NCBI GenBank assembly: GCA_052325505.1
Contig: JBKQUS010000133.1
Span: 1,807 to 65,806 of the forward strand
Origin: Limisphaerales bacterium
Lineage (GTDB): Bacteria > Verrucomicrobiota > Verrucomicrobiia > Limisphaerales > Palsa-1400
DNA: 64,000 nucleotides
Direction of reading: 5' to 3'
The first letter of the stretch is position 1. The number at the start of each line of letters is the position of its first letter. The notes below the pieces were generated by a model that was not told where the DNA came from, searched no databases, and was given only the letters and a program-made list of their open reading frames with translations. The translations under genes were made by a program, and so were the position numbers. Shown here piece by piece: positions 9,368 to 32,217 of the stretch.

Positions 9368-10237
9368 ATGAAAACACAACGTCGTTCCGGCTTCACGCTG
9401 ATTGAGCTGCTGGTGGTCATCGCCGTCATCGCGATTCTGGCCGCCCTGCTGCTCCCCGCTTTGGCCAAGGCCAAGGAGGAGGCCAACCGCGCCGCCTGTT
9501 TCAGCAACTTGAAACAATGGGGCCTGGCCCAAAACATGTATCTGGACGACAGCAAGGGCGTTTTTCCCACCAGCAAAATCCCCCCCGACCCTCCGCTGAC
9601 CCCGCCGAGTTACACTGCTACTACGGCCAAGACCCCCACCTGGCTTGACTTGACCGATATCCAATACATGAGCCAGCAAAGAGGCGTCTCCATCGGCAGC
9701 GACGCCTGGTTCAATGCACTGCCGCCCTACATCGCGTCCAAGGCCTTGTGGCAATATGCGGTCACTGGCGCGTCGAGCACTTTCAACATCTCGAAAAGCA
9801 TTTATCGATGCCCCACGGCGGCGCTCCTGCCGCAGGATACGACCATTCCGACCGGCCAGATCCTGTTCAATTACGCCATGAACTCCAAAGGAAACAATGA
9901 CCTGCCCAATGGCGTGGACTTGAAGCAGCAGGATGTGCTGCATCCTTCCGCATTCGTGCTGTTTTGCGAGTGCCGCACGGAGCAGTTCGAAACCCCCTAT
10001 TACGGAGCCGGCAGCGGTAATGCTGACATCCTGTGTTCTTGCGAATGCTACACGACTCGTTTGTCCTCCCGCCATAGCAAGGGATCGAACATCTGCTTCA
10101 GCGATGGCCACGTCAGATATTACAAATACATCTATACCTGCACCCTGTGTAACGGCAACAACGCCTGCGATCCCGGCCAGCCCGACATCAACTGGAGTTG
10201 CGACGGGGTCACGATTGGCGGCGCGGATGTTGAGTAA
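9368..10237 (+). CDS. Prepilin-type N-terminal cleavage/methylation domain protein with H-X9-DG motif (DUF1559-like)
   Basis: The N-terminus reads [32 protein letters not shown]. The C-terminal motif is [15 protein letters not shown] (H-X9-DG). The track ORF begins at a TTG at 9362; the ATG at 9368 is the likelier start. Confidence 0.85.
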
Positions 10238-12996: not shown

Positions 12997-13806
12997 TCAA
13001 CCTCCGTCCATTTTCGGGAAAAAACCGTGAGCGGCGGCAATGGTCGCCGTGCTGAGTTCTTCCAGCGAACAGTTCTTGACCTCCGCAGCCAGGAGGGAAA
13101 TTTCCCTGACGTAGGCCGGTTCGCAACGCTTGCCCCGAAACGGCACCGGGGCCAGAAAAGGGCAATCGGTCTCGAACATAAACTGGCCGAGCGGAGCGGC
13201 GGCCAGCGCCTCGCGCGCGTTCCGGCCGTTCTTAAAGGTGAGGATGCCGGTGAAGCTGACGAGTGATCCCAAGGCCAGCACCCGGCGCAACGCCCCGGCG
13301 TCTTCGGAGAAACAGTGGAACACCCCGCGCGTCCGGCCCGCGAACGGCTGCATTACCGCCACAGTGTCCTCGAACGATTCGCGCTGGTGGATGACGCAGT
13401 TTAATCCCCGTTCTGCGGCCACTTCCAGTTGCTGGCGGAAAATTTCCTTCTGCCGCTCTTTGTATTGCTCGAACCCGGCCTGCTCTTTCGCGTCATCAGG
13501 ACGCCGGTGATAATCCAGACCCGTTTCGCCGATGGCCACCACTTTGGGATGGGCCGCCAGCTCGCGCAACGCCGGACGGACGTCGGGCGGGGCTTCCAGG
13601 GCTTCCGTAGGATGCCAGCCCACGGCGGCGAAGACGTTTGGGAACTGTTCGGCAATACGGATGGCCTGGGCGCTGCTCTCGAGGTCAGTGCCAATGGTGA
13701 TGATCTTGCCGATGTCGGCGGCGGCGGCCCGTTCGATTACTTCGAGCAAGTCGCGGGCAAAATCGGGAAAACCGAGATGGGCGTGCGTATCGTAAAAAAC
13801 AGGCAT
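12997..13806 (-). CDS. tatD: TatD-family metal-dependent hydrolase
   Basis: MPVFYDTHAHL is the classic TatD N-terminus, with later GETGLDY and motifs around HCFS. The track ORF starts 12 codons upstream at 13842; the ATG at 13806 fits the family better. Confidence 0.85.
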   Translation of the reverse strand: MPVFYDTHAHLGFPDFARDLLEVIERAAAADIGKIITIGTDLESSAQAIRIAEQFPNVFAAVGWHPTEALEAPPDVRPALRELAAHPKVVAIGETGLDYHRRPDDAKEQAGFEQYKERQKEIFRQQLEVAAERGLNCVIHQRESFEDTVAVMQPFAGRTRGVFHCFSEDAGALRRVLALGSLVSFTGILTFKNGRNAREALAAAPLGQFMFETDCPFLAPVPFRGKRCEPAYVREISLLAAEVKNCSLEELSTATIAAAHGFFPKMDGG

Positions 13807-15417: not shown

Positions 15418-17745
15418 ATGAAATTGAAAATACCGGTTGTGTGCCTGCTCTGTCTTTTCCTCTCCGGGATCGAGGCCGCGCCCGCCGCCCCGACCGGCTG
15501 GTTTAACTGGCGCGGGCCAAACCAGAACGGCACCTCCTCGGAAAGAAACCTGCCGGACACGCTGGACGCCGCCAAACCGCTTTGGACGGCCGATTTCCCC
15601 GGCATGTCCACCGCCGTGGCGGCCAACGGCAGGATTTACATCCTCGGTTATCTCGGCGAAGGACCGGATTTGTCGGAGGGCGTGGCTTGTTTCGACGCCA
15701 ACACCGGGGAAAAATTGTGGGAAAAGCTCTATCTGGATTTTCTGAGCGACACGATTTATCTGCGCTATGCCACCTCCAGCCCGACGATCGATCCTGACAC
15801 CGGCAACGTCTATATCCAGGACACCCAGGGAATTTTCGCGGGCTTCACCACCGACGGCCAAGAGCTTTGGGAACACTCGTTGATGGAAGAATATGGCCGC
15901 CTGACTTTTCCCAATGGCCGAACCGCCTCGCCCGTCGTCGATCAGGATCTGGTCATCACCCGCGGCATCACCGCCAACTGGGGCGGGCAAGGCCCGGCTG
16001 CGGACCGGTTTTATGCCTTCGATAAAATGACCGGGGAAGCCGTCTGGTCATCGACTCCGGGCGGGCGTCCGAAGGACAATTCATATTCGCATCCCGTTTT
16101 GGCCTGGCTGGATGGCCGGCGCGTCTTTTACGCCGCCACGGGCGACGGTGCCGTCGTCTGCGTCAACGCCCGCAACGGCAATCCCATTTTCCGGATTCCG
16201 ATTTTCAAGGCGGGCATCAACTCGTCGCTTTTGCTGCACGGCGATGATGAAATCATTGCCATTTACGGAACGCCCTACGATCCAGGCCGGATGGTCGGCC
16301 TCAAAATCCCGCATGTCACACCCACCAACGCTGCCGAACCCGTGATCGTGCCGCGTGCCGACGCGCTGCTCTGGGAAAATGAAATTCGCACTTCGGCAAG
16401 CTCGCCCATCCTGGTGGGCGACCGCGTTTATGTCACGAGTGAGATCGGCTATTTGGTGGCGGTGGACGCGAAGACCGGCACGGTGCTGTGGAGATTGAAG
16501 CTCGGCATTGAGCAGCGCAATTCCTGCCCGCTTTATGCCGACGGCAAGATCTACGCCCCCATCGTCAATGATCCGGACGCCTCCGCCGCCATCGGCGAGG
16601 AAAGCGCCGAAGGCGCCCATGGCGCGCTTTATGTCATCGCGCCCGGAGATAACGAAGGAAAAATCCTCTGCCACACGATGCTGGACGGACGCTGCTTCGG
16701 TACGCCCACGGCTTACAACGGCCGTATCTACATGCAAACCACCAAAAAGCTCTACTGCTTCGGCCCCGCCACGCCCGCCTCCACCTCATTCGAAACCGCC
16801 GACGCCGCGCCGGTCGAGAAATGGCCGGAGCCTGGCCCGGCCAAGAGCCTGCTGGCCGTTCCTTCCGAGTTGCTGTTGCAGCCTAGCGACACAGTGTCGT
16901 TTCATGTCCGCGCGCTCGACGCCAACGGTTTGACCGTGCGCCCGATTGATGACCCGAAGTCAATCCAATGGTCGTCCTTCATCCCGCCCACAGCGAAGGT
17001 CAGAGCCACCCTGAAAGCCTCGTTTAACTCCGACGGACAATTGGTGGCGGCCCCGGACAAAACGCCTTCCGCCGGCGCGTTCCAGGCTAAAGCGGACGGC
17101 CTGGCCGGCTACATCCGCGGGCGAATTCTGCCCGGCCTGCCCATCCGGCAGGATTTTAAAAGTTTCAATCTCACCGAAACCGCCAGCAATGCCTTTGAGC
17201 CGCCCGCGAAATTCGCCTACCCGCCCCTGCCGTGGATCGGCGCTCGTTTCAAATTCGACGTGCGCGAAAAGGACGGCGCGAAATGTCTTGTCAAGACGAT
17301 TGACAACCCATTCTTCCAGCGCGCCACCGTCTTCATGGGTTCGCCGGACCTGAAAAATTACACCATCGAAGCTGACGTCATGAGCGATGGCAACAAGCGG
17401 AAAATGTCCACCGTCGGCGTAATCAACCAGCGTTATCGCATCTCGCTCAAGGGCAACGAACAGGCCCTCGAAGTGACTTCCAACGAGCAACTGCTCGATG
17501 TCATGCAGCCTTTTCACTGGGCGGCCAACGAGTGGTATCATTTGAAGGCGCGGGTCGATGTGGTGGCGGATGGCTCGGGGGTCGTGCGCGGCAAGGCCTG
17601 GAAACGGGGCGACACTGAACCGGCCGCTTGGGGCATCGAGGTGCCGCTCAAACACACCAGCACCTGTGGCTGCCCCGGCCTCTTCGCTTTCTCGCCACAG
17701 AACATGCGCGTGTATATCGACAATATTGCCGTCACCCCGAATTGA
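15418..17745 (+). CDS. Secreted PQQ-like (BamB-like) beta-propeller repeat protein with a C-terminal lectin/DUF1080-like domain
   Basis: 775 aa with a signal peptide. It has repeated W..(D/T).G...W / ..SP.. / GRIY-type propeller blades. The C-terminal roughly 200 aa (WYHLKARVD...VYIDNIAVTP) looks like a concanavalin-type domain. Confidence 0.75.
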   Translation: MKLKIPVVCLLCLFLSGIEAAPAAPTGWFNWRGPNQNGTSSERNLPDTLDAAKPLWTADFPGMSTAVAANGRIYILGYLGEGPDLSEGVACFDANTGEKLWEKLYLDFLSDTIYLRYATSSPTIDPDTGNVYIQDTQGIFAGFTTDGQELWEHSLMEEYGRLTFPNGRTASPVVDQDLVITRGITANWGGQGPAADRFYAFDKMTGEAVWSSTPGGRPKDNSYSHPVLAWLDGRRVFYAATGDGAVVCVNARNGNPIFRIPIFKAGINSSLLLHGDDEIIAIYGTPYDPGRMVGLKIPHVTPTNAAEPVIVPRADALLWENEIRTSASSPILVGDRVYVTSEIGYLVAVDAKTGTVLWRLKLGIEQRNSCPLYADGKIYAPIVNDPDASAAIGEESAEGAHGALYVIAPGDNEGKILCHTMLDGRCFGTPTAYNGRIYMQTTKKLYCFGPATPASTSFETADAAPVEKWPEPGPAKSLLAVPSELLLQPSDTVSFHVRALDANGLTVRPIDDPKSIQWSSFIPPTAKVRATLKASFNSDGQLVAAPDKTPSAGAFQAKADGLAGYIRGRILPGLPIRQDFKSFNLTETASNAFEPPAKFAYPPLPWIGARFKFDVREKDGAKCLVKTIDNPFFQRATVFMGSPDLKNYTIEADVMSDGNKRKMSTVGVINQRYRISLKGNEQALEVTSNEQLLDVMQPFHWAANEWYHLKARVDVVADGSGVVRGKAWKRGDTEPAAWGIEVPLKHTSTCGCPGLFAFSPQNMRVYIDNIAVTPN

Positions 17746-17749
17746 ATTT

Positions 17750-19441
17750 ATGAAAGCTAATCTCATCTGTTTTTCCAGCGTCGCTGCCGCACTTTTGGCC
17801 GGCGGCTTGATCGCCCGCGGGGCCGACTGGCCGCGCTGGGGCGGGCCAGATCCGGGCCGCAACATGTGCTCCACGGAAACCGGCCTGCCCGACCACTTTA
17901 CCTCCGGCACCAACAGCCAAATCGGCCTTAAGCCGGGGACGGATGAAGTTGATGTCAACAATGTTCCAAACGTCAAATGGGCCGTCAAAATGGGCTCACA
18001 AAGCTACGGCAACGTTGTCGTCGCCGATGGCAAGGTCTTCATCGGCACCAACAACGAGAATCCGCGCGACCCCCAACACCAGGGCGACCGCAGCATCCTG
18101 ATGTGTTTCGACGAAAAGACCGGCGAGTTTCTCTGGCAATTGGTCATTCCCAAGCTGGCCTCGGGCAAGGTCAACGATTGGGAAAATCTCGGCCTGCTCT
18201 CGTCGCCCAACGTCGAGGGCAACCGCGTTTATATCGTCACCAGCCGTTGTGAAGTCATGTGCCTGACCACCGACGGCATGGCCAAGGGCAACCAAGGGCC
18301 TTTCATGGACGAAGCGCAATATGTCGCCGGCCCGGGCAACCCCCCCGCCAAAATCGGCCCGCACGATGCCGACATTGTCTGGAAGTACGACATGATGGAT
18401 GAGCTGGGCGTCTTCCCGCACAACGCCTCCAATTGTTCGCTCCTCATTGTGGGCGATTTGGTTTATGCCTGCACTTCCAACGGCCAGGACTGGACGCACG
18501 TCAACATCCCTTCCCCTAATTCCCCCAGCCTCATCGCGCTCGACAAGCACACCGGCAAACTCATGGGCGAGGACAATGCCGGCATCGGCCCGCGCATTTT
18601 TCACGGCGAATGGTGTTCCCCCTCCGCCGGGGTGGTCAATGGCCGCCAGCTCATTTTCTTCGGCGGCGGCGACGGCATTTGTTACGCCTTCGACGCAACG
18701 CCGCAAAAAGGCGACGGCTCGCCCATCGTCCCCGTCGTGCCCGGCCCGCCCAACCCCCGCTTCGAAGATAAGGACACCATGTATCTGAAGAAAGTCTGGT
18801 GGTACGATTGCAACCCGCCGGAGCGCCGGGTCAATGACGCCATGCACAAATATCCGGCGCCGGACGGCCCTAGCGAAATCAACGCCACCCCCGTTTTCTG
18901 GCATAACCGCGTCTATGCCGCCGTCGGCCAAGACCCCGAACATGGCGAGGGCGTCGGCATGCTCAATTGTATTGACGCCACCAAAACCGGCGACATCACC
19001 AAGGCCGGCAAAATCTGGAGCTACGACAAAATCCATCGCAGCCTCTCCACCGTCTCCATCGCGCCCAACGGCCTGTTGTTCATCGGCGACTTTTCCGGCT
19101 TCGTTCATTGCCTGGACGCCGAGACGGGCCACGTCTATTGGGTGCATGACATGAAGGCGCACATGTGGGGCTCGACCTTGGTCGCCGACGGCAAGGTTTA
19201 TTGCGGCGATGAGGACGGCGACCTAGTGGTTTTCGCCGCGAAAAAGGAAAAGCGGATTCTGAGCGAGACGAATTTGGGCGACCCGATTTATTCGACGCCA
19301 GTCGCGGCCAACGGCGTGCTTTACGTCCATTCCAACACGCATTTGTTCGCCTTTTACGATGCGGAACACAAGCGCATGGCCAGCGACGAGAAGCCGAAGG
19401 TTGAACTCGAACTGGGCAACCCGGGTGCGAACCAACGATGA
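17750..19441 (+). CDS. Secreted PQQ-like beta-propeller repeat protein
   Basis: The ATG at 17750 gives MKANLICFSSVAAALLAGGLIARGADWPRWGG, a signal peptide. The track start at 17558 would overlap the previous gene by about 190 nt. Propeller-blade motifs run throughout (GKVFIGT, GNRVYIVT, DLVYACT, NRVYAAVG, GLLFIGD, GKVYCGD, GVLYVHS). Confidence 0.8.
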   Translation: MKANLICFSSVAAALLAGGLIARGADWPRWGGPDPGRNMCSTETGLPDHFTSGTNSQIGLKPGTDEVDVNNVPNVKWAVKMGSQSYGNVVVADGKVFIGTNNENPRDPQHQGDRSILMCFDEKTGEFLWQLVIPKLASGKVNDWENLGLLSSPNVEGNRVYIVTSRCEVMCLTTDGMAKGNQGPFMDEAQYVAGPGNPPAKIGPHDADIVWKYDMMDELGVFPHNASNCSLLIVGDLVYACTSNGQDWTHVNIPSPNSPSLIALDKHTGKLMGEDNAGIGPRIFHGEWCSPSAGVVNGRQLIFFGGGDGICYAFDATPQKGDGSPIVPVVPGPPNPRFEDKDTMYLKKVWWYDCNPPERRVNDAMHKYPAPDGPSEINATPVFWHNRVYAAVGQDPEHGEGVGMLNCIDATKTGDITKAGKIWSYDKIHRSLSTVSIAPNGLLFIGDFSGFVHCLDAETGHVYWVHDMKAHMWGSTLVADGKVYCGDEDGDLVVFAAKKEKRILSETNLGDPIYSTPVAANGVLYVHSNTHLFAFYDAEHKRMASDEKPKVELELGNPGANQR

Positions 19442-21389: not shown

Positions 21390-22453
21390 AGGACACCATC
21401 CAAACTGCGCAGGATCAACTCGACGCCCACGTCCGCGAGATGATGCGCTGGCATTTTTCGCCGGAGACTGGGTCCACCTTCTGGCTGGACTGGGCCAAAA
21501 GGGCTGGCTGGAATCCCGCCACCGAAGTGAAATGCTTCGGCTGCCTGCAACGCTTCCCTCATTTCCAGGACGAGTGGCTGCGCGATTTGCAGCCGGAGGT
21601 CTGGGTCCCGAAACAATTCCAGGGCCGGCCCTTCAACATCTTCGAAACCGGCGGCACCACCGGCATGCCCAAGCAACGTATCGGTTGGGACGACTACAAG
21701 GTGGATTACGAGGAATTCTCCGCCAAACTTTCCGACGCCGACTTCCCGCGCGGCGCCGCCTGGCTTATGGTCGGCCCGACCGGGCCCCGCCGCTTGCGCC
21801 TGGCCATCGAGCACCTCGCCAATTTTCGCGGCAGCTCCTGTTACTTCATTGATCTGGACCCGCGCTGGGTCAAAAAGGTCCTGTCCGCAAAACAATTCGA
21901 CGCGGCCCGCGCCTACATGGACCATGTGGTGGACCAAGCCGTCACGATCCTGAAACACCGCAAAATTGCCGGCCTCTTCACCACGCCCAAACTGCTCGAA
22001 GCCCTGGGCGAGAAAATCCAGCTATGGGACGCCGGCATCCGCGGCGTGTTTTGCGGCGGCACAACTATGGCGCCGCAATACGTCCGTTACATCATCGAAG
22101 AAGTGCTCGAGAACCGCATTGGCTTCTATCCCGCCTACGGCAACACCCTGATGGGCCTGGCCGCCAGCGTTCCGCTCCGCCCCGAAGACCGGTTTTCCGT
22201 GACCTACTTCGCGCCCCAGCCCCGCGCTGTCCTGCGCGTCGTCGATCCCAACAAGACCGATCAACTTGTTGACTACGGAAAATGGGGCCGCGTCGAGTTG
22301 ACCACGTTGACCAGGGAATTCTTCATGCCGCGATTTCTGGAACGGGACGAAGCCATCCGCCGCGAGCCGCGCCCGCCCTATGCCTGGGACGGTGTCGCAG
22401 AAGTGCGCCCCTTCGGCGCGATGGAAAAAACCATCGTCGAAGGAGTTTATTGA
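21386..22453 (+). CDS. Adenylate-forming (PaaK/ANL-like) enzyme, putative
   Basis: 355 aa. FETGGTTGMPKQR resembles the (S/T)GTTGxPK AMP-binding P-loop of PaaK/F390-synthetase-like ligases. It is translationally coupled (ATGA) to the symporter. Confidence 0.5.
   Translation: MKDTIQTAQDQLDAHVREMMRWHFSPETGSTFWLDWAKRAGWNPATEVKCFGCLQRFPHFQDEWLRDLQPEVWVPKQFQGRPFNIFETGGTTGMPKQRIGWDDYKVDYEEFSAKLSDADFPRGAAWLMVGPTGPRRLRLAIEHLANFRGSSCYFIDLDPRWVKKVLSAKQFDAARAYMDHVVDQAVTILKHRKIAGLFTTPKLLEALGEKIQLWDAGIRGVFCGGTTMAPQYVRYIIEEVLENRIGFYPAYGNTLMGLAASVPLRPEDRFSVTYFAPQPRAVLRVVDPNKTDQLVDYGKWGRVELTTLTREFFMPRFLERDEAIRREPRPPYAWDGVAEVRPFGAMEKTIVEGVY
22309..22453 (+). repeat. Copy 1 of a 145-bp direct repeat (functional 3' end of the ligase-like gene)
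   Basis: My hand alignment to 28944..29088 gives about 125 of 145 identical positions, including the stop codon position. Confidence 0.85.
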
Positions 22454-22534
22454 CTGGGGGTCTCGTTCACATCGGTGTACCTCCCGCCAATCGTGCATAT
22501 TCCAGTAATAATGATAATTAGCAAATTAAATACA

Positions 22535-22556
22535 AAATTTGTCGCTTGACAAATTT
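22535..22556. promoter_or_regulatory. Inverted repeat containing a TTGACA box at the AT-rich left edge of the island
   Basis: The sequence is AAATTTGTC-GCTT-GACAAATTT, with 9-bp arms. It lies about 170 nt upstream of the Kelch gene start. A second 9-bp-arm hairpin (gtttgaatc...gattcaaac) follows at about 22572..22598. Confidence 0.3.
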
Positions 22557-22724
22557 CTAACTTAGTGTTGGAGTTTGAATCGCTGTGAAGGATTCAAACA
22601 CAACGAGTCGTAGCAGTGCAATCCGGGCTTCAAACGATGGGGTTCGAGTTTCAAAACCCCTTCTCAACGGCAGTGGCCGCATTTGTCCCCCTCCCCGCAA
22701 AACTGCAAACCAAAAGGTGATTCA

Positions 22725-25700
22725 ATGAAAACTCGTCCAGGAAATGTTGTTCAATTCGCACTGGCGCTGTCCGCGCTGGCAATCAACTCATGTGTCATTC
22801 AGTCGGTGCATGCCGTCAATTTCACCGGCACCGGCTCGGTGAGCTCCGCGCGCTGGGGTCAAACCGTCACCTTGCTCAACAACGGGAAGGTGCTGGTCGT
22901 GGGAGGTTCCGGCAGCAGCGGCGTTCTTTGCGAAGCGGAGCTTTACGATCCGGCCACTGGAACATGGACACCCACCAGTTCGCCGAACGCAGCGCGCATG
23001 AATCACACGGCGACCTTGCTCCCCAACGGGAAGGTAATGGTTGCCGGGGGCACAGATGGCAGCAGCGTTCTTTCCAGCACGGAACTGTATGATCCAACCG
23101 ATGGTTCGTGGACGACGGTCGACGGTCTGAACACCGCGCGCTGTTATCACACGGCAACCTTGCTGGGCAATGGCGAGGTGCTGGTCACGGGAGGCGAGGA
23201 CATCAGCGGAAACTCCAGCACCAAGTGCGAGTTGTACGATCCAGCCACCGGGTATTGGACGGTGTCGAAGGGCAATCATCTGCTCAGCGCGCGCTATATG
23301 CACACGGCGACGTTACTGCCCGATGGAAGGGTGCTGGTCGCGGGAGGCTTTAGCACACCCAACACGATACTTTCCAGTGCCGAGCTTTACACTCCGGGCG
23401 GCAGTGGTTTGTTATGGTTGCCGGCCAGCGACATGGGCGCCGCACGCGATGGTCACACGGCAACGTTGTTGCCCAATGGGACCGTGCTGGTTGCAGGGGG
23501 CCTTGGCCCCGGCGTTCTTAATAGTTCGGAGTATTACACTCCGGACAGTGGAGAGGGAACGTGGACGGTGACCGGCTCGTTGAACCAAGGACGTTGTGCC
23601 AGCACGGCGGCATTGCTGCCCAACGGGACTGTGCTGGTGACGGGAGGGTCGATCTACGAGGGGGTTCTCGAAGAAAGTCTTTCCAGCGCTGAACTATACG
23701 ATCCGAACAACAACGGTGGCACATGGACGACAACCGGCTCGCTCAACAACTCACGCTCCCATCACACGGCGACCTTGCTGGCAAACGGACAGATGCTGGT
23801 CGTGGGGGGCTACGAACCCACCCTTTTCGGCGGCCCCGTCCCTCTGTCCAGCACGGAACTGTATGATCCGTCCGAACCGATGTGGTGGACGACCGGTGTT
23901 GGTGCGCTAAACCAAATGCGCGCCAGCCAGACGGCGACGTTGCTGCCCATTGGGATGGTGCTGGTCGCCGGGGGCCTTGGCCCCACCGGCTGGCTGCCCA
24001 ACGCGGAGTCATATAATCCGGCCACGTGGACTTGGACAGTGACCGGCTCGCTGCACACCGCACGCTCCGGTCACACGGCGACCTTGCTGGCAAACGGAAA
24101 GGTGCTGGTGGTGGGAGGCATGAACAGCAGCGGCTATCTGCCAACCCATTATGGCGTGGAGCAGTACAATACGGACGACGGGACATGGGCGGTGCCACCC
24201 GCCAGTTGCAATCTCTGCCACCCCGCATCCGCACCGTTCCCGGCAGCTTTGGACAGCCGCCCGACAGGCCACCTGCATGTTGAACGCTCTCAGCACACAG
24301 CGACGCTGCTGAGCAATGGGAAGGTGCTGGTCGCCGGAGGTCAAACCGGCAGCAGCCTTGCCAATGCCACAGAGCTGTACGATCCGGCCACGGGGTTTTG
24401 GTCGCTATGGCCGCTGACAGCCAGAAGTTGCACCACCTGCCACACCGCCCCGCCTTCGGATGCCAGTGACAAACCGGCAGGCCACCTGCACACCCCTCGC
24501 TATGGTCACACGGCCACATTGATGCCCGACGGAACGGTGCTGGTCACGGGTGGCAAAAACGCCAACGGCTACTTAATGAATACTGAACCCGATGCAGGCC
24601 CCGGTTCAGGGCCCGGCATAGGCTTGGAGGTTAGCGTGGAGCAGTACGATCCCGTTACCGGGACGTGGGCGCCACCCAAGGACTGCGAAGACTGTCACAG
24701 GAATGGTTTGGTACCAGGACATTATGGCCACCTCGGCACCAGCGGTCGCAGTGATCACACGGCAACGTTGCTGCCCAATGGCGAAGTGCTCGCCGCGGGG
24801 GGCGAGGAGAACGGCATCGCTTCGTCCAGCTCAATGTTGTACTTCCCAGCCTTGCGGGAGTGGAGGAACACAACCAATATGGCCACCGGTGACATTACCT
24901 ATATGGTCACCGCACGTTATGATCACAAGGCGACCTTGCTGGCCAATGGGAAGGTTCTGGTGACGGGAGGGTATGATTCCAACGGCGACCCTGTCAACAA
25001 CGCGGAATTGTTCGACCCGGCCAGCGGGACGTGGACGGCCACCAGTCCGCTGACCACCGCACGCGGGGATCACACGGCGACGTTGCTGCCCAACGGGAAT
25101 GTGCTGGCCGCAGGTGGATTTGACAGCCTCGGCGATCCTCTTTCCAGTGCGGAAGTTTATAACGTTGGATTGGGTTTCTCAAACGTCTGGCAACCGCAGC
25201 TCGACCCGTTTGCCTCGGAACTCGCTTTGGGCGGCAACTTGACGATCAGCGGCTCCGGCTTTCGGGGCATCTCCGAAGGTTCGTGCGGCAACTCTCAGGC
25301 CTCGCCGGGGGATGTCCCGGTGGTGCAACTCCTCAGTCTGGCCAACGAGCAGACTTTGTTCCTGCTGCCCGATCCGGACACCGCCTGGTCGGACACGTCT
25401 TTCACTTCCGGGATCGTGACTGGATTCCCGCCCGGCTACGCGCTCGTGACGGTGTTCGTCAATGGCATTCCCAGCGTGCCCGCCTCGGACCCGCTGTTGC
25501 CCCTCATCGACATCCCAGGCAAGGGGAACATTCTCGACGTCAGTGTTCCGGTTCCGACCGCATCCACTCTGACGAATCTCACAACACTCGGCGACGGTTC
25601 GTACCAATTCGCCTTCACCAACACTGTTGGAGCGTTGTTCGGCGTGCTGGCCACCACGAATCTGGCGCTGCCGATGACCAACTGGACAGTCCTGGGCGGC

Positions 25701-25790
25701 GTCGCGGAAGTCTCGCTGGGCCAGTTCCAGTTCATTGATGCGCAAGCGGCGCTTTACCCGCAGCGATTTTACTGCGTGTACTCGCCGTAA
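22725..25790 (+). CDS. Secreted multi-blade Kelch-repeat protein with three CxxCH-containing blades and a C-terminal W...FY module
   Basis: The ATG at 22725 is preceded by aaggtga and gives signal peptide MKTRPGNVVQFALALSALAINSCVIQSVHA. There are about 17 repeats of the HTATLLPNGKVLVAGG + ELYDP..G.W type. The track start at 22683 is a TTG. Confidence 0.85.
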   Translation: MKTRPGNVVQFALALSALAINSCVIQSVHAVNFTGTGSVSSARWGQTVTLLNNGKVLVVGGSGSSGVLCEAELYDPATGTWTPTSSPNAARMNHTATLLPNGKVMVAGGTDGSSVLSSTELYDPTDGSWTTVDGLNTARCYHTATLLGNGEVLVTGGEDISGNSSTKCELYDPATGYWTVSKGNHLLSARYMHTATLLPDGRVLVAGGFSTPNTILSSAELYTPGGSGLLWLPASDMGAARDGHTATLLPNGTVLVAGGLGPGVLNSSEYYTPDSGEGTWTVTGSLNQGRCASTAALLPNGTVLVTGGSIYEGVLEESLSSAELYDPNNNGGTWTTTGSLNNSRSHHTATLLANGQMLVVGGYEPTLFGGPVPLSSTELYDPSEPMWWTTGVGALNQMRASQTATLLPIGMVLVAGGLGPTGWLPNAESYNPATWTWTVTGSLHTARSGHTATLLANGKVLVVGGMNSSGYLPTHYGVEQYNTDDGTWAVPPASCNLCHPASAPFPAALDSRPTGHLHVERSQHTATLLSNGKVLVAGGQTGSSLANATELYDPATGFWSLWPLTARSCTTCHTAPPSDASDKPAGHLHTPRYGHTATLMPDGTVLVTGGKNANGYLMNTEPDAGPGSGPGIGLEVSVEQYDPVTGTWAPPKDCEDCHRNGLVPGHYGHLGTSGRSDHTATLLPNGEVLAAGGEENGIASSSSMLYFPALREWRNTTNMATGDITYMVTARYDHKATLLANGKVLVTGGYDSNGDPVNNAELFDPASGTWTATSPLTTARGDHTATLLPNGNVLAAGGFDSLGDPLSSAEVYNVGLGFSNVWQPQLDPFASELALGGNLTISGSGFRGISEGSCGNSQASPGDVPVVQLLSLANEQTLFLLPDPDTAWSDTSFTSGIVTGFPPGYALVTVFVNGIPSVPASDPLLPLIDIPGKGNILDVSVPVPTASTLTNLTTLGDGSYQFAFTNTVGALFGVLATTNLALPMTNWTVLGGVAEVSLGQFQFIDAQAALYPQRFYCVYSP

Positions 25791-25894
25791 TCGCAGGCAG
25801 TTTTCCGGTTGAATCAATTCCTCACCCGGATGCATGGACAAATTGATTGGTCGAACAGGAAAGCAATGACAACGAACAAAATCTAAAATGTCTT

Positions 25895-26989
25895 ATGAAA
25901 ACACAATTCCTCCATCTATTCATGTTGCTGGCGGTGTTTGCCGGCATTCATCCCGCTCTGGCGCAAACAACCAATTTGAATATTGCGGCGGCGGGCAACC
26001 AAGTCGTTCTATTCTGGTCGGTCACGGACACGAATTACGTTCTGCTGAGCACCACCAATCTTGACTCCACAAACTGGGTGCCGGTCTGTAATGCCGTCCC
26101 GGTCACCGCCGTCACCGTCACCAACCTCCCAGCCACAATCTTTTTCCGTTTGGTCGCCACTACGGCCGGCATGGCGTTCGTTTGCGGGGGGCAGTTCACG
26201 ATGGGGGACACTTTGGATGGCGAGATGGATGCCATCCCCATCAGCGTAACGGTGACGGGATTCTACATGGAAACGAACCTGGTGAGCTACAGTCTGTGGC
26301 AGTCGGTCTATAATTGGGCCACGAACAACGGATATGGCTTCGACACCGCCGGTATGGGCAAGGCGTCGAACCATCCCGTGCAGTACGTGGATTGGTATGA
26401 CGCGGTGAAGTGGTGCAATGCGCGGTCGCAGCTCGCGGGTTTGACTCCGGTATATTACACGGACGCTGGTTTGACGCAGGTTTATGAGGGTTTTGCGGAC
26501 GTGGATGCTGTTTATGCCAACTGGTCGGCCAATGGCTACCGATTGCCGACGGAAGCGGAGTGGGAGAAGGCGGCTCGCGGCGGGCTGGACGGGAAACGGT
26601 TTCCGTGGGGCAATACCATCTCTGAAAGCCAGGCCAACTACTACGGAGACACCACCCTTGGCTACGATTTTGGACCGAACAGCTACAACGCAGCTTTTAC
26701 AAACGGAGCGATGCCTTATACGAGCCCGGTGGGGTCATTCGCACCAAACGGATATGGACTTTACGACATGGCTGGAAATGTACTGGAGTGGTGTTGGGAT
26801 TGGGATGGCACGCCTTACGGCCAGCCATCCACCAGTAATCCGACAGGACCGGCAACTGGAGACAACCGAGTGTTGCGCGGCGGCTCTTGGATGCACCGTG
26901 CCAACCTCGCGACGTGCGCCTATCGCTGGAGCTACAATCCGTATAATTGGGACGATTATGCCGGATTTCGTTGTGTGAGGACATATTAG
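25895..26989 (+). CDS. Formylglycine-generating-enzyme (SUMF1/FGE-sulfatase) domain protein, secreted
   Basis: The ATG at 25895 gives signal peptide MKTQFLHLFMLLAVFAGIHPALA. An N-terminal W...FFRL module is followed by FGE-domain motifs: GGQFTMGD, NHPVQYVDWYDAVKWCNA, GYRLPTEAEWEKAARGG, YDMAGNVLEWCWDW and RVLRGGSW. Confidence 0.85.
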   Translation: MKTQFLHLFMLLAVFAGIHPALAQTTNLNIAAAGNQVVLFWSVTDTNYVLLSTTNLDSTNWVPVCNAVPVTAVTVTNLPATIFFRLVATTAGMAFVCGGQFTMGDTLDGEMDAIPISVTVTGFYMETNLVSYSLWQSVYNWATNNGYGFDTAGMGKASNHPVQYVDWYDAVKWCNARSQLAGLTPVYYTDAGLTQVYEGFADVDAVYANWSANGYRLPTEAEWEKAARGGLDGKRFPWGNTISESQANYYGDTTLGYDFGPNSYNAAFTNGAMPYTSPVGSFAPNGYGLYDMAGNVLEWCWDWDGTPYGQPSTSNPTGPATGDNRVLRGGSWMHRANLATCAYRWSYNPYNWDDYAGFRCVRTY

Positions 26990-27081: not shown

Positions 27082-28801
27082 TCACGGGTTTGTCTGCATC
27101 AAGCGGTAGAAACGGCTTGAATTGGTGAGAGGCACCGGGTCGCTCCATATTTGGGTTGAGTTCGTCAAGGTCACGCTGCCCGCGGTCTGCCACTGGTTGC
27201 TGGTGTTCAGGCCTGAAACACTTTGAATCTGGTAGGTCCATCCCATCGAGCCGTAAATGGTGAACGAGACAGTCTGGCCGGAAAGGACGGGCGACTGGAT
27301 CTGGGGGGGGCGTTGTCTGCACCAAGCGGTAGAAGCGGCTTGAATTGGTGAACGGCACCGGGTCGGTCCATACCTGAGTCGAATTCGTCAAGGTCACGCA
27401 GTCCACTGTTTGCCAGTGGTTGCTGGTATTCAGGCTCGAGACACTTTGGATCTGGCACGAGTATCCGATCGAGCAGCAAATCGTGAACGAGACAGTCCGG
27501 CTGGAAAGGACGGGCCATTTGATCTGGGGGGGTGGATTGAGTCCGCTGAGGAAGAATGTGTTCGGCACTGGATTGAAATTATAGTTGTAGTCCATGCTGG
27601 TGGTGCCGCCCGTGACAAACAATCGGCCGTCCCTCAAGAGCGTCGTGGCCACGCTGCCGGGATAGTAGTTGGATATCGTCAACGGATCGGAAAGGGCGAG
27701 CGTCTCGCCGGTGGCCAGGTCCGCCTGATACACCCGGAAAGTGGCGTCGGCGCCTCCATCCGGGCTTGCCCCGGCCAGCATCAACACGCGGTTGTTGGCC
27801 GCATCCACCACGGGTGGCCAAACCGCCAGATTGTTCCAAAACACCGGCGTCAAGGCCAGCTTCGAGAATTGCTTGCTCGCCGGGTCGAAAAACGCCAGCG
27901 CGTACTCAGTGTTCGTGTTGACCGTTTCCCACATAAGGAACACGTAGCGGCCGTCGCTGGTTTTGAACCGTCCGACGTCCTCGCCATACTCCACGCCTCC
28001 GTAAACCCAGTTCGGCTCCCCGGCAATCGCGCACGCCGCCAGGACTGTGAAGGTGTTGCTGCCCGGATCGTAAAGCTCGATGGACGGGATGTTGGAGCTG
28101 CCGTAAATGTCCGTGCCGCCCACCACCACGGCTTTGCCATCCGACGTCGGGAATACCAAAGGCAACGACCGCGGGCTGTTCAGCGCGCCGGTTGCGGCAA
28201 AGGCTTTGTTGGACGGGGTGTAAATCTCGCCGTACGTGCCACTGCTGTAATCATACCATCCGCCGACGATCAGCACACTGCCTCCGGTCAACTGCGCGCC
28301 CTTGCAGCGCATCCGGGGAAGGTTCATCGTGGTGCCGGTGGACGCGACAGTTGCGCTCGTCGGACTCAACAGTTGCGCGGAAGCATAACCGGGCGCAACT
28401 CCCCAATCGGCGGCCCCTCCCGCCATCAAGTAAGTGCCGTCGGCCAGGGGGATCAGCGCGCCCATGTCATAGACAAAGGGCAGGCTCTGATTGACACAAC
28501 TGTTGTTCGCCAGCGTCCACAGATCCATGGAGTTGAGCGCGGAAAACCCCGTCCCGTGCCCGCCAAGCAGCGCCACTCTGCTATCCGGCAACTGGACAAT
28601 GTAGTGCCCCATGCGGGCCACGCTCATCACCGGCCCTGGCTCAAGGATGGCCCCGTTCCCGATAGCGCTACCGGCGACACCCAGCCAGCATGCCGCCGCC
28701 AGAATCAGGCCCAGCCGTCTTCGGCGACGACCCGGGGCCAATCGAATGTCTGCTGCGTGGGGTTCAACCTCAAGTTGTTGAATAAAGGGCTTGGTAGTCA
28801 T
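27082..28801 (-). pseudogene. Kelch-like beta-propeller secreted protein; frame broken at a C8 (plus-strand G8) tract between two tandem C-terminal modules
   Basis: The as-assembled ORF is 26735..28801. After the first FYRLVQ module the translation becomes low-complexity and overlaps the convergent FGE gene by 255 nt. Removing one C from the tract at 27303..27310 gives a second in-frame module (...SSRFYRLMQTNP) and a TGA at 27082..27084. The N-terminus has RRRRRLGLILAAACWLGVAGSA. Confidence 0.7.
27088..27532 (-). repeat. Tandem duplication of a 215-nt coding unit, each copy preceded on the coding strand by a poly-C tract (C7, then C8)
   Basis: Copy A is 27311..27525 and is preceded by the C7 tract at 27526..27532. 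Copy B is 27088..27302 and is preceded by the C8 tract at 27303..27310. The copies are roughly 80 percent identical by eye. A C7-plus-unit length of 222 nt is in frame; with C8 it is 223 nt. Confidence 0.85.
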
Positions 28802-28943
28802 GCATAGAGAATATCAAACGCCACTTCATTGTCAATCAGAAATGGTAATTATCACAAACTTTAAGATGAGATTTGCTTCTCTATGATTTTACGTAAGTGC
28901 TTGCAAATCAACGCTGCAAAGGTGGCAATACAGTTCAACACCC

Positions 28944-29088
28944 GACCAGGGAATTCTTCATGCCGCGATATCCAGAGCGCGACGAAGCCATCCGCCGCGA
29001 ACCGCGCCCGCCGTACGCTTGGTACGGCGTCGGCAAAGTCCGCCCCTTCGGCGCAATGGAAAAAACCATCGCCGAAGGAGTCTATTAG
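28944..29088 (+). pseudogene. Orphan relic of the ligase-like gene 3' end (copy 2 of the 145-bp repeat)
   Basis: It translates to TREFFMPRYPERDEAIRREPRPPYAWYGVGKVRPFGAMEKTIAEGVY*. The end of the intact gene reads TREFFMPRFLERDEAIRREPRPPYAWDGVAEVRPFGAMEKTIVEGVY*. Weak similarity continues about 20 nt further upstream and then stops. Confidence 0.85.
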
Positions 29089-29098
29089 CCCGGGCGGA

Positions 29099-29686
29099 TC
29101 AACGGCTTTGCTGGAGCAAGGGAATAAGCCAACCTGGCAGCGGGTTGGCCAGGAAGGTCGCTTTTCCGTTTTCGAACTCCGCCACGCGATGGAAGGGATG
29201 ATTCAAATCATCGTTGTCGAAGATGATCACATGAGGCAGAACAGGAATCGCGGCTTTCAAATTCGCCAGCGTTCGCGGGAAACGTGTCACCAATTTGGCC
29301 AACGGCACGTCATGGCCTCCTTGCGAGACCCGCATCGCGACGCGTTGATCGGAAGTTTCAGGGCTGCCGATGCCGATAAAACAGAGCGCCACTTGATAGC
29401 CCCTCCTCATCGCGTCTTTCAGAAACGCCAGCTTGTCGCCCGCCGGATCGGAGAAGACGGTCTCGAACACAAAACTTTCGCGTTGATCCACCAGACGTTG
29501 CCGCAGCACCCCTGCCATTTTCGCCGCGTCATAAACATCGATCCCCAGTTCCCTCGCCAGGATGTCCGCATCGACCAGACGCAGTGCGCTGGGTTGAAGG
29601 TGAGTATGGTAAAATGTGGTCTTCCCGGCTCCGTTTGATCCGGCCAGAGCGACGATCACGGGACGTTTGTCGAGGGGCAAAATCAC
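29099..29686 (-). CDS. Zeta-toxin-like P-loop kinase (toxin candidate)
   Basis: 195 aa with Walker A LAGSNGAGKTTFY close to the N-terminus. Its size and layout resemble zeta/AAA_33-type toxins. It overlaps the upstream small gene by 4 nt. Confidence 0.65.
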   Translation of the reverse strand: MILPLDKRPVIVALAGSNGAGKTTFYHTHLQPSALRLVDADILARELGIDVYDAAKMAGVLRQRLVDQRESFVFETVFSDPAGDKLAFLKDAMRRGYQVALCFIGIGSPETSDQRVAMRVSQGGHDVPLAKLVTRFPRTLANLKAAIPVLPHVIIFDNDDLNHPFHRVAEFENGKATFLANPLPGWLIPLLQQSR

Positions 29687-30063
29687 TTTTTCCTGGGCGC
29701 ACCCACCCGGAACCGCCGGTTGACGAAACGCCCGACAGTGCGCTTCCCGCCTTCATCGATGCGCACCAGGAACCCCGGCTTGTTGGGGGCCGGTTCGTAA
29801 TGCGGATAGGGCAGCGTGTTGAGATACGTTTCCAGCCGTCTTCGGCCCTTGGAGGAATCGGCCGACGCCAGGCACTCCGAGAGAGGGCGGGGGCCGGCCA
29901 TTTTGCAGAGGGCCAGGGCTTGATCCCCTTTCAGCAACGGTTCGATGGCGCGGCCCAAATTGGCCCAAAACTCAATTTGTCCGGCGATGGATCGTTCCGC
30001 GATCTCGCCCGTCAAACGCGCATCCAGCACCAGGACATCCGAAAGCTTCACCGGTTGACTCAT
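29683..30063 (-). CDS. ParD-like antitoxin candidate
   Basis: 126 aa lying immediately upstream of, and overlapping, the zeta-like gene. The N-terminal region (VKLSDVLVLDARLTGEIAERSIAGQIEFWANLGRAIE) resembles my recollection of the ParD_like family. Confidence 0.5.
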   Translation of the reverse strand: MSQPVKLSDVLVLDARLTGEIAERSIAGQIEFWANLGRAIEPLLKGDQALALCKMAGPRPLSECLASADSSKGRRRLETYLNTLPYPHYEPAPNKPGFLVRIDEGGKRTVGRFVNRRFRVGAPRKK

Positions 30064-30210
30064 GGTGTCATGGTAGCATATTGCTACCGACTGTCAAACT
30101 ACCCGCCGCCAAGGCGTCCGGAAAAGAGACGAAACGCACAGTTAACTTCATGCTCAAAAAGTGGGCGGCGCAAAATCGGACTTCGCCATTCCAGATGCTC
30201 CCGCCAAACT

Positions 30211-31875
30211 TCAGCTTCCGGCCTTTTCCAGCATTTCCCGCGCGTGCTGCAGGGCGGTGTCGGTCTGGTCCCCCAGCATTCGGGCGATTTCACGCACGCG
30301 TTGCGCGGAGTCAAGCATTGTGATTTCGGATATGGTCCGGCCCGACTCGATCCGCTTGGTGACGACGTAATGCGCGGCGGCGCTGGCGACCACGGCAGGC
30401 AAATGCGTGATGCAGACCACCTGGTGCCGGCGGCCGATTTCCCGCATCTTCTCCCCCACCACCACCGCCGTTCCGCCGCCGACGTTGGCGTCGATTTCGT
30501 CGAAGACCAGCAGCGGAATTTCATCCTCGGCGGCCAAAACGGTTTTAAGGGCCAGCATGACGCGCGACATCTCGCCGGAGGAAGCGATGGCGCGCAATGG
30601 CCGCGCCGGTTCGCCGGCGTTGGGCGCGAACTGAAATTCAATTTCGTCCAGGCCGGAGGCGGAAGGGGTTTCGACGGCGCGCAAAGTGACTTCGAAATGG
30701 CTCCGTTGAAATCCCAGGCCCTGCAATTGTTTCATGGCCGCTTTGACCAGTTTGGGAATGGCCTTGTGGCGCTGAACGGAAAGTTCCCGGCCCAGGCGGG
30801 CTATCTCATCGCGGAGCGTTTGCAGCGCGCCGTTGATCCGCGCCAACTCGGCGTCGCGCTGTTCCAGGTTTTGCAGTTTCCTTTGCGCCTCTTCGCCGAA
30901 GGCGATGACCGCCGGCAGCGTCGCTCCGTATTTGCGTTTGAGTGACTGAACCAGATTGAACCGCTCTTCCAATTTCTGAAGCTGCGCCGGATCGACTTCG
31001 AGTCCGTCGGCGTAGCGGTGCAACGCCGAGGGTAACTCGTTCCAAACCGACATGGCCTGCTCATGGAGGCCTGTCAAGCTGGCGGCGGACGAATCGAGCC
31101 GTTGCAAGGCCTGGAGCGTCCGGCCCAGCGCGCCCGCCTGCCGCAACAGGGAATCCTCCTGTTCGCCCAAAAGGTTGAGCGCCTCCTGGCACAACTCCAG
31201 CAGCCGCGAGGCATTGCCGGCGCGTTGAAAATCCTCCGTCAACCGGCCCTCTTCGTCGGGCTGCAATCGCGCCGTGGAAATCTCCCGGCTCTGGAAGCGG
31301 AGCAGATCCAGTTGGCGGGCGTAGGTCTGTTCATCGACAATCAACACGGCTTTTTCATTTTCCAAATCAGAACTGCGCCGGATCAAGCCGGCGAACGTTT
31401 CACGGGTTGGATTCAGGCCGGCAAAGGCGTCGAGAATCTCCAGTTGTTTGGCCGGATGCAGCAGCGACTGGTGTTCGTACGGCCCGTGCATATCCACCAA
31501 TTCGCGCCCCACGGCAGCCAGCATTTGCAGCGTGGCGGGGGAGCCGTTGATGAACTGCCGGTTGGCCCCGGCGGCGGTCAGGACGCGTTTGAGCAGGAGC
31601 TGGTTGTCGACACAGGGTTCCAGCCCGTTTTCCTCAAGGAATTTTTGCAGGCGGCGCAGTGCCGGCCCTTCGAAAACCGCTTCCACCGAACAATTCTCGC
31701 ACCCGGCGCGGATCAGCTCGCGGTCCGCCCGTTCCCCCAGCGCCAGGTGCAGCGCGCCGATGATAATTGATTTGCCGGCGCCGGTCTCGCCGGTGATGGC
31801 ATTGTATCCCGGCTGCAATTGCAGCGTGAGATCAGAAACCAGGGCCAAATTCTTAATGCGCAACGTGCTTAACAT
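30211..31875 (-). CDS. recN: DNA repair protein RecN
   Basis: The ATG at 31875 gives MLSTLRIKNLALVSDLTLQLQPGYNAITGETGAGKSIIIGAL. Long coiled coils follow, then a C-terminal SGGEMSRVMLALK signature and LVFDEIDANVGG Walker B. Confidence 0.9.
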   Translation of the reverse strand: MLSTLRIKNLALVSDLTLQLQPGYNAITGETGAGKSIIIGALHLALGERADRELIRAGCENCSVEAVFEGPALRRLQKFLEENGLEPCVDNQLLLKRVLTAAGANRQFINGSPATLQMLAAVGRELVDMHGPYEHQSLLHPAKQLEILDAFAGLNPTRETFAGLIRRSSDLENEKAVLIVDEQTYARQLDLLRFQSREISTARLQPDEEGRLTEDFQRAGNASRLLELCQEALNLLGEQEDSLLRQAGALGRTLQALQRLDSSAASLTGLHEQAMSVWNELPSALHRYADGLEVDPAQLQKLEERFNLVQSLKRKYGATLPAVIAFGEEAQRKLQNLEQRDAELARINGALQTLRDEIARLGRELSVQRHKAIPKLVKAAMKQLQGLGFQRSHFEVTLRAVETPSASGLDEIEFQFAPNAGEPARPLRAIASSGEMSRVMLALKTVLAAEDEIPLLVFDEIDANVGGGTAVVVGEKMREIGRRHQVVCITHLPAVVASAAAHYVVTKRIESGRTISEITMLDSAQRVREIARMLGDQTDTALQHAREMLEKAGS

Positions 31876-32217
31876 GGCGGCAGCCCGCAGAGTAAAGTTC
31901 CCGGTCCGAACTTCAAAGTTTAAACTGCATGGCATGGGTGATTGAAAGTGGGTGAGATTCATCAATCATTCGCCCAACGGGAGAACATCATTCAGCCAGG
32001 GGTCGCCCCGATTCCCAGAGGGGCTACCCCAGGCCATGGTCCGTTATCCTCCCCTACTCGGAACGGGTTTCCGCTATTGGCCTGCACGAACTAATGATTG
32101 ATCGATTATCTTTTCATTGAAAGTGGCTCTATAAAACAGACATTATACGGAGTAGGTTGGACCGTTTACAGGTTCTTTAAATGATCCTGTAAGTTTGTGT
32201 CAACTCAACAACGCCGC

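Follow-up and report, generated by a model that had tools for sequence, protein, structure and literature searches.

Can the loops that connect the blades of a beta-propeller carry haem? The question is raised by a gene in a stretch of 64,000 nucleotides (nt) from a Limisphaerales bacterium of the Verrucomicrobiota (assembly GCA_052325505.1, contig JBKQUS010000133.1, positions 1,807 to 65,806 of the forward strand), referred to here as the window and numbered from its first letter. The gene encodes an exported Kelch-repeat protein of 1021 amino acids (aa), in which three consecutive blades are each preceded by a loop insertion containing CxxCH, the site of covalent haem c attachment. From the motif, its conservation, and the predicted fold, it is proposed that three covalently bound, probably bis-His, c-type haems lie along one face of the second of two propellers, a reading that is given a probability of about 0.6. 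Both the motif and the fold are known; it is their combination and geometry that are new. The locus was first singled out by a sequence-based description (the original prediction), whose coordinates for the gene and its CxxCH codons agree exactly with the open reading frame translation and whose three quoted peptide segments are correct.

Three CxxCH Insertions in an Exported Kelch Propeller

The features of the gene on which the argument depends are as follows, in window coordinates.

22725..25790, + strand: open reading frame from ATG at 22725 to stop at 25790, encoding the 1021-aa exported protein with 14 Kelch blades and a C-terminal region of ~215 aa
22725..22814, + strand: Sec-type signal peptide MKTRPGNVVQFALALSALAINSCVIQSVHA, probable cleavage after VHA (judged by inspection)
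24045..24065, + strand: D-A loop before blade 9, GSLHTAR, with the clade-specific invariant His444
24189..24266, + strand: insert 1, AVPPASCNLCHPASAPFPAALDSRPT, aa 489-514, in the D-A loop before blade 10; CxxCH at 24207-24221; absent from 48 of 48 paralogues
24267..24278, + strand: GHLH after insert 1, aa 515-518, aligning with paralogue 'TGsLnxxR'; His516 and His518 replace residues of the generic Kelch loop
24402..24479, + strand: insert 2, SLWPLTARSCTTCHTAPPSDASDKPA, aa 560-585, in the D-A loop before blade 11; CxxCH at 24429-24443
24480..24491, + strand: GHLH after insert 2, aa 586-589; His587 and His589 are clade-specific and invariant
24555..24644, + strand: enlarged B-C loop in blade 11 (aa 611-640), exceeding the length seen in most paralogues; sequence variable
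24669..24725, + strand: insert 3, APPKDCEDCHRNGLVPGHY, aa 649-667, in the D-A loop before blade 12; CxxCH at 24684-24698
24726..24734, + strand: GHL after insert 3, aa 668-670; His669 is the conserved downstream His of the blade

A full-length search returned an identical protein from a public assembly (P0121), followed by seven proteins that are 66-79% identical and, at 37-50%, by a large family of ~900-aa proteins. With metagenomic loci included, the clade that carries the insertions has 11 members (P0121-P0127, P0129, the fragment P0001, L004, and L006), which are 68-81% identical to the window protein over the aligned length. The alignment used here holds 56 sequences, of which ~48 are colinear ~900-aa paralogues; these share 43-55% identity over the whole length, and none has the inserts, a CxxCH, or the extra His residues described below. 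With its signal peptide, blades, and C-terminal region all colinear with theirs, the window protein falls within this unnamed family of secreted 14-blade Kelch proteins, as part of a derived subclade.

Pfam recognises only Kelch repeats in the native protein, and it does so far above threshold for Kelch_1, Kelch_2, Kelch_3, Kelch_4, and Kelch_6 (Kelch_4 reaches 304 bits in 13 stretches and Kelch_1 reaches 213 bits, with cut-offs near 20 bits). DNA repeat analysis counts 13-14 periodic copies of the Kelch unit. Thirteen of the 14 blades start with an inner strand resembling H[TK]A[TA]L, and the first starts with QTVTLL. The AlphaFold2 model, computed from the full-length protein and the 56-sequence alignment, has a predicted local distance difference test (pLDDT) of 81, a predicted template modelling (pTM) score of 0.81, and 14 sets of four strands. 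Motifs of ~50 aa repeated above curated thresholds and four-stranded blades in the model together identify a Kelch-repeat propeller. When the model was compared with the PDB by Foldseek, only Kelch or galactose-oxidase-like structures were found, with a template modelling score of ~0.78 normalised to the target (Kelch domains) and designer Kelch propellers among the closest matches. The N-terminus has a basic n-region, a hydrophobic core, and an A-x-A-like end, a pattern kept in orthologues and paralogues alike, and it is modelled as a helix at residues 6-23 with low pLDDT. This Sec-type signal peptide, recognised by inspection and conserved across the family, agrees with the signal peptide of the original prediction, and it would supply the export expected of a c-type cytochrome. 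The protein is thus a predicted double Kelch propeller exported by the Sec route.

The three motifs (CNLCH at aa 495, CTTCH at aa 569, and CEDCH at aa 654) are far from what composition would give. The amino acid content of the protein predicts 0.004 CxxCH per protein; in 20,000 shuffles at least one motif arose 79 times and three or more never did, and no other credible open reading frame of the 64-kb window contains one. Alignment with the 48 colinear paralogues shows that each insert lengthens a D-A loop by 18-26 residues, which come after the 'GTW' of strand D and ahead of the generic 'TGxLxxxR'; the three loops are consecutive and precede blades 10, 11, and 12. DNA repeat analysis gives a blade period of 144-168 nt, which rises to 222, 213, and 249 nt at the three insert-bearing blades. 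The claim that the extra segments occupy the same relative position in consecutive blades is therefore borne out, with the correction that 11 blades of a total of 14 lack the insert, where 'roughly 14' others had been supposed.

The change in these loops extends beyond the inserts. At 93 positions in all, a residue that never varies in the clade is seldom found in the paralogues, and these positions are concentrated at aa 444-669. Nine are His residues: those of the CxxCH motifs (499, 573, and 658), those of a following 'GH' (516, 587, and 669), and those of an 'LH' (444, 518, and 589). The 'GH' His lie in loops 10, 11, and 12 and the 'LH' His in loops 9, 10, and 11. His516 and His518 are invariant and clade-specific, and His444 is found in 11 of 11 clade members and 10% of the paralogues, which usually have Asn. 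The GH(L/Y)(H/G) motif of the original prediction is thus specific in its His only, as the G and L are generic residues of the Kelch loop. For insert 3 the conserved His is not in the proposed 'GHYG' but in the second GH, G668-H669, and a fourth clade-specific His, H444 of 'GSLH' in the loop before blade 9, had been missed. Altogether, six further clade-specific invariant His lie in the same or adjacent loops, and each putative haem thus has a candidate for its distal (sixth) ligand.

Blades 9 and 11 also have altered or enlarged B-C loops; that of blade 11 keeps the clade-specific Y616 and P622 and has low pLDDT at 626-634. Since B-C and D-A loops exit the same face in an up-down propeller topology, these changes are inferred to remodel a single face of blades 9-12. 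In the strands that precede inserts 1 and 3 (24154-24191 and 24634-24671), a common 'GVEQY..GTWA.PP' with 79% DNA identity is found that has no match in other blades. This suggests that intragenic duplication or conversion carried the insert-bearing unit from one blade to another.

Conservation of the Motifs

The Cys, Cys, and His of CxxCH are kept in 32 of 32 motif copies, so that all three motifs are invariant in 11 of 11 clade members where covered. Nine of the ten members other than the window protein show all three, and one truncated fragment shows the two that it covers. The Gly-His after each motif is kept in all ten, and G and H are invariant in 24 of 24 aligned insert segments as well as in additional orthologues. 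Apart from the six Cys of the motifs, no Cys is shared by all orthologues. Loss of these residues in homologues had been named in the original prediction as the result that would count against it; instead, Cys, Cys, His, and Gly-His stand in the same blades of 10 of 10 other clade members. The insertions are limited to this one small clade, which agrees with its description of a specific elaboration as opposed to repeat noise.

The rest of each insert is far less constrained. The xx residues of CxxCH vary among N/T/S, L/F, T/K, T/S, and D/V/I, and the spacers drift. In insert 3 the spacer is almost wholly changed in sequence and ranges from 7 to 13 residues in length with C, C, H, G, and H fixed. 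Six related loci available as DNA show synonymous changes at the motif codons (TGC/TGT for Cys and CAC/CAT for His). Because the motif residues are fixed through synonymous changes while the spacers and xx positions drift, the pattern indicates purifying selection on the whole CxxCH pentapeptide and not common ancestry alone. Among 231 other Kelch homologues there are 18 CxxC, none of which is in a D-A loop and none of which lies inside a Kelch blade and is then followed by His.

These data bear directly on one alternative, in which the inserts have no specific function and are neutral loop expansions spread by intragenic conversion, with the motifs conserved through recent ancestry. The 'VEQY..GTWA.PP' strand shared by inserts 1 and 3 does speak for copying between blades, and the clade is small and shallow, with 68-81% identity. 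However, spacers that have changed at almost every residue and in length, above all in insert 3, around C, C, H, G, and H fixed through synonymous substitutions are not what neutral descent would leave, and three CxxCH by chance have p <1e-4. This explanation is regarded as very improbable.

Proposed Haem Attachment and Competing Explanations

In c7 cytochromes such as PpcA, one haem takes its distal ligand from a His that lies ~15 residues beyond the CxxCH of another. The machinery that attaches haem asks little of its substrate: CcsBA attaches haem to 9-mer CXXCH peptides, for which two thiols and a His suffice (PMC8112865), and maturation of short CXXCH tags that are exported is described for the Ccm system (Braun and Thony-Meyer 2004, cited in PMC3601427). 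As the synthases need only CxxCH, an exported and loop-exposed CxxCH would be expected to be modified with haem in any organism that makes cytochrome c.

In a profile comparison, the inserts match mainly haem proteins. A profile built from 24 insert segments (35 columns, of which those for W, C, C, H, G, H, and H do not vary) was compared with 1.84 billion representative proteins and matched one Kelch cluster (E 5e-35) and 29 others at E up to 1e-3. Nearly all of the 29 are multihaem proteins with 4-34 CxxCH each, the remainder being a few low-complexity repeats; the matches that were scanned are Pfam Cytochrome_C7, c3, or MtrC-type multihaem cytochromes, and none has a propeller. The alignment spans 'vpP.sCxxCH - 9-13 residues - paGH(L/I)', as in 'VQPKSCNSCHNGNLAPGKPAKHLVT' and 'TPTQCAACHNGTLAQGMPAGHL'. 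In addition, the NCBIfam model TIGR01904 (CxxCH cytochrome domain) weakly matches aa 563-587 of insert 2 (E 0.001, 18.8 bits with a cut-off of 27).

Several results pull the other way. No curated cytochrome c model of Pfam or NCBIfam reaches its threshold on the native protein, and in the multihaem matches of the insert profile much of the score is the sum of CxxCH copies. Sub-threshold matches of the concatenated inserts to Pfam models of the MtrC, c7, and paired-CXXCH types (PF22113 at 25.3 bits and PF14522 at 22.8 bits) were set aside, because shuffles that keep only the CxxCH score alike, up to 30.6 and 23.7 bits, so that these matches add nothing beyond the motif. Neither cytochrome c maturation genes nor other cytochromes are present in the 64-kb window or in the fetched loci, L001 and L006 included, and no RNA run holding the gene was found. 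AlphaFold2 does not place the inserts confidently, as pLDDT is <50 at aa 494-513 and 564-577 and low around 650-660. Lastly, the six extra invariant His are twice the number that three bis-His haems need, and the same residues suit three Cys2His2 sites, for which the ligand count fits equally well. Two of these points may be accommodated by haem. The three leftover His could provide propionate hydrogen bonds or alternative ligands, and failure of AlphaFold2 to place the inserts, which are Pro/Ala/Ser-rich, is the behaviour expected of cofactor-dependent loops, for which it is common. A short helix is predicted in insert 3 at 654-657.

The Cys2His2 arrangement is the serious alternative, and Cys/His metal sites had also been named as such in the original prediction. 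Here each CxxC would combine with two His, one from the 'GH' in the same loop and one from the 'LH' a blade earlier, to form a site for zinc or another metal that staples adjacent D-A loops together for a structural or metal-sensing role, without haem. The six Cys and six clade-specific His (H444, H516, H518, H587, H589, and H669) fit this neatly, the 'LH' of loops 9-11 is offset by one blade from the 'GH' of loops 10-12, and one insert faintly matches a phage zinc-binding model (E 0.1). What this leaves unexplained is the His directly after the second Cys, which is invariant in 32 of 32 copies, and no relative has a CxxC without His at the insert position. Exported bacterial proteins seldom have zinc sites with Cys ligands, since CxxC is oxidised in the periplasm; an exported CxxCH, moreover, is a substrate for haem attachment (PMC8112865). 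AlphaFold2 is also usually confident on zinc knuckles, though the low pLDDT (<50) of the inserts is a weak argument in this respect. Metal staples are therefore considered unlikely, though they are the strongest of the competing explanations.

It may also be asked whether the Cys pairs form disulfides, either redox-active in the manner of thioredoxin or as loop clamps, with the His tuning them or incidental. CxxC is the classic dithiol/disulfide motif and the protein is exported, and disulfides had been named in the original prediction among the results that might be obtained. However, nine invariant clade-specific His, one of them always after the second Cys of each motif, would go unexplained, and the motifs lie in a Pro-rich loop with no thioredoxin-like context, not at the N-terminus of a helix as in the thioredoxin fold. 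Where other Kelch relatives have CxxC, it is in a B-C loop and without His. Disulfides are accordingly given little credence, well below metal staples, and c-type haem attachment is the preferred reading.

Proposed Arrangement of the Haems

If the CxxCH loops do carry haem, a small clade of uncultured Verrucomicrobiae would have turned an exported Kelch propeller into a three-haem c-type cytochrome. The chain would be exported unfolded by Sec, and a periplasmic cytochrome c synthase would then place one haem on each CxxCH. The propeller would fold with its three haems on the D-A/B-C face of blades 9-12, each with the CxxCH His as proximal ligand and a neighbouring invariant His, from the same loop or from the loop of the preceding blade, as distal ligand, giving low-spin bis-His coordination. 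Each haem would in this way be clamped between loops of adjacent blades. The three would form a short arc or chain across this face, which belongs to the second propeller, with the enlarged B-C loops covering them in part, and would be within electron-transfer reach of one another, because the loops share one face on which adjacent blades are ~10-13 A apart. As to function, it may be speculated that the propeller is a platform that binds a partner or substrate, and that the haems donate electrons to it or accept them from it, either in the periplasm or extracellularly, in soil and peat.

Taken as a whole, this would be a new cytochrome c architecture in peat and soil Verrucomicrobiae: a propeller scaffold in place of a helical or haem-packed core, with one minimal haem-binding loop (CxxCH with His from two adjacent blades) on each of three successive blades. 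The resulting three-haem arc over the binding face would connect whatever partner or substrate is bound there with an electron donor or acceptor outside. This fuller proposal is put forward tentatively and is held with less assurance than haem attachment as such.

Relation to Known Proteins

No described family that combines Kelch with haem c was found in Pfam, NCBIfam, the PDB, or the literature, in line with the original prediction. A search of the full-text literature for Kelch with CXXCH or multihaem gave nothing relevant, and a search of PDB sequences with the inserts gave only chance antibody matches. The closest relatives are the ~900-aa secreted 14-blade Kelch proteins (P0131, P0142, P0145, and others), often auto-annotated as 'N-acetylneuraminic acid mutarotase' or 'delta-60 repeat protein'. 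They share with the window protein the signal peptide pattern, the 14 blades, and the C-terminal 'QRFYxxxSP' end, but they lack the three D-A insertions, the CxxCH, and the extra His.

The inserts on their own resemble the units of c7/c3 multihaem cytochromes (PF14522, PF02085, and PF14537; for example P0243, P0245, and P0261), in which CxxCH is followed after 9-16 residues by (G)H; these units are also Pro/Gly/Ala-rich, with little secondary structure and ~25-35 residues per haem. In c7/c3 proteins, however, one unit directly follows another and the domain core is made up of the haems, whereas here a whole Kelch blade lies between units that are hung from a propeller. The native protein has no match to a c7/c3 domain, and the concatenated inserts reach 22.8 bits with a cut-off of 24.8, while shuffles reach 23.7. 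As the resemblance does not rise above the shuffled control at the Pfam level, it is treated as likeness and not homology. Similarly, insert 2 aligns with the CxxCH half (model positions 46-70) of TIGR01904 / PF09698, the Geobacter CxxxxCH...CxxCH domain, but the CxxxxCH half is absent from it and the match is below the cut-off, so the protein is not a member.

A propeller and a covalent haem c are found in one exported chain in cytochrome cd1 nitrite reductase and in quinohaemoprotein alcohol dehydrogenases. The alpha subunit of hydrazine synthase likewise has a propeller and haem c in one chain (PMC12607021). In all of these the haem c resides in a separate, autonomous cytochrome domain and the propeller is not of the Kelch type, whereas here the motifs are in the loops that connect blades. 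The radical copper oxidases galactose oxidase and GlxA (PDB 5lxz and 4unm), which are the top Foldseek matches, resemble the window protein as secreted Kelch propellers with a redox cofactor at the loop face and a C-terminal beta-sandwich. They differ in having copper and a Tyr-Cys radical, no CxxCH, and a single seven-bladed propeller, and the model for GlxA (NF052501) scores 118 bits on the window protein with a cut-off of 800, from the Kelch repeats only. A functional tie between exported propellers and multihaem cytochromes is known from the NHL-repeat propellers UetH/UetI and Gmet_0556, which accompany outer-membrane multihaem cytochromes in extracellular electron-transfer clusters (bioRxiv 10.1101/2022.05.06.490989). 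There, propeller and cytochromes are separate proteins of one cluster, whereas here the propeller itself carries the motifs and no gene for a cytochrome lies close by.

Distribution

The architecture is rare. A single-pattern scan of 185,579 species genomes found one carrier, an uncultured Verrucomicrobiae metagenome-assembled genome, and a scan of metagenomes found five loci. With the insert-bearing segment as query, mostly generic Kelch proteins were returned, with the motifs only in the fragment P0001. The sequencing runs that contain the sequence are soil, peat, wetland, and freshwater-sediment metagenomes.

Genomic Context and Other Features

Outside the insert-bearing blades, the following features of the gene and its surroundings were recorded.

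22309..22451, + strand: left direct repeat, 143 nt, the 3' end of the upstream F390-synthetase-like gene; 87% identical to the right copy
22544..22724, + strand: upstream sequence, conserved and travelling with the gene; contains a perfect TTGACA (22546-22551) and a leader of ~170-180 nt
25140..25787, + strand: C-terminal region, aa 806-1021, with predicted beta-sandwich domains; common to the 900-aa paralogues and strongly conserved across the family
28944..29086, + strand: right direct repeat, closing a 6.6-kb segment that holds the Kelch-CxxCH gene, an FGE-sulfatase-domain gene, and a second Kelch-like gene

The C-terminal region has no Pfam match even at E up to 10. Within it, the CxxCH clade has a private insertion of 11-15 aa (SDPLLPLIDIP; aa 919-933, 25479-25523) with low pLDDT, which is absent from 48 of 48 paralogues and might contact the remodelled propeller face.

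The gene travels with its leader. The upstream region is ~80% identical to those upstream of the L001 and L006 orthologues, though the upstream genes differ, and a module of 3.3 kb (22544-25855) corresponds to L001 9820-13101 at 84% DNA identity, starts exactly at the conserved GCTTGACA, and has a leader as conserved as its coding sequence. The leader has no match to an Rfam family, and a consensus scan found neither a canonical -10 element nor a full sigma-70 promoter in it; the region may comprise a promoter and a structured 5' untranslated region. A Fur-box-like AT-rich stretch, AATAATGATAAT, and a perfect 9-nt palindrome, AAATTTGTC..GACAAATTT (22490-22565, overlapping the TTGACA), were dropped as candidates because the AT-rich stretch and the left arm are not conserved in L001 or L006, and they are probably context-specific or due to chance.

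The neighbours of the gene are not constant. In the window, a solute symporter and the F390-synthetase-like gene lie upstream and an FGE-domain gene downstream; in L001 and L006, tetratricopeptide repeat, Ser/Thr kinase, and extracytoplasmic function (ECF) sigma genes lie upstream, with GntR and ATP-binding cassette transporter genes downstream. No operon partner of the Kelch-CxxCH gene is conserved across the window, L001, and L006. In two contexts the gene lies between direct repeats (134-143 nt), each of which reproduces the 3' end of its upstream neighbour. Those of L001 derive from the ECF sigma gene (9644-9777 and 13093-13226), are 98% identical and 3.4 kb apart, and have only the Kelch-CxxCH gene between them. 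An ECF fragment is also found downstream in L004 (3153-3299) and is missing downstream in L006. From this arrangement, the segment looks like one inserted by recombination that duplicated the 3' end of its target, and there is no integrase or transposase inside the repeat-bracketed segment.

Directly after the Kelch-CxxCH gene is an FGE-sulfatase / GldK-like gene (25847-26989, + strand), whose product is exported and has an N-terminal beta-sandwich. It also follows in L007 (2094-3233, 92% aa identity) and not in L001, L004, or L006, and no CxPxR target motif is evident in the Kelch-CxxCH protein. The second, divergent Kelch-like gene is on the minus strand, from 28801 down to ~27085, and its product begins with a signal-like N-terminus that includes RRRRR. 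At the other end, a ~73-aa C-terminal domain ('...SSRFYRLVQT') is present in two tandem copies that are 84% identical (27090-27532). Because the copies recur with a period of 223 nt, the second falls out of frame, and the reading frame continues as nonsense to 26735, overlapping the FGE gene; the sequence indicates a frameshift, a sequencing error, or a pseudogene. A public gene call on the opposite strand (27416-28807, + strand) looks spurious.

The stretch just beyond the right repeat (29099-31965, - strand) encodes a zeta-toxin / ParD-like pair together with an ATPase of the SMC_N/AAA_23 type, as named by the precomputed Pfam labels of public gene calls. Such a neighbourhood, judged from these labels, is typical of a variable or defence island and fits an insertion hot spot. 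Farther upstream (15418-19441, + strand) are two adjacent large PQQ-like beta-propeller proteins of 775 and 563 aa without CxxCH, followed by DUF3311 and sodium:solute symporter genes.

Implications

For annotation, the protein serves as a warning, since domain-based pipelines label it 'Kelch' or 'mutarotase' and the motifs are missed. If haem is attached as proposed, it would be the first located case of c-type haems on the blade-connecting loops of a beta-propeller. It would follow that ~25 residues grafted into a loop can suffice for each haem, which would widen the known repertoire of cytochrome construction, and the protein would be a natural template for haems held at fixed spacing on a rigid repeat scaffold. 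For the organisms themselves, it would be a candidate extracytoplasmic redox protein in uncultured Verrucomicrobiae of peat, wetland, and soil, habitats in which extracellular electron transfer to iron and humic matter is important.

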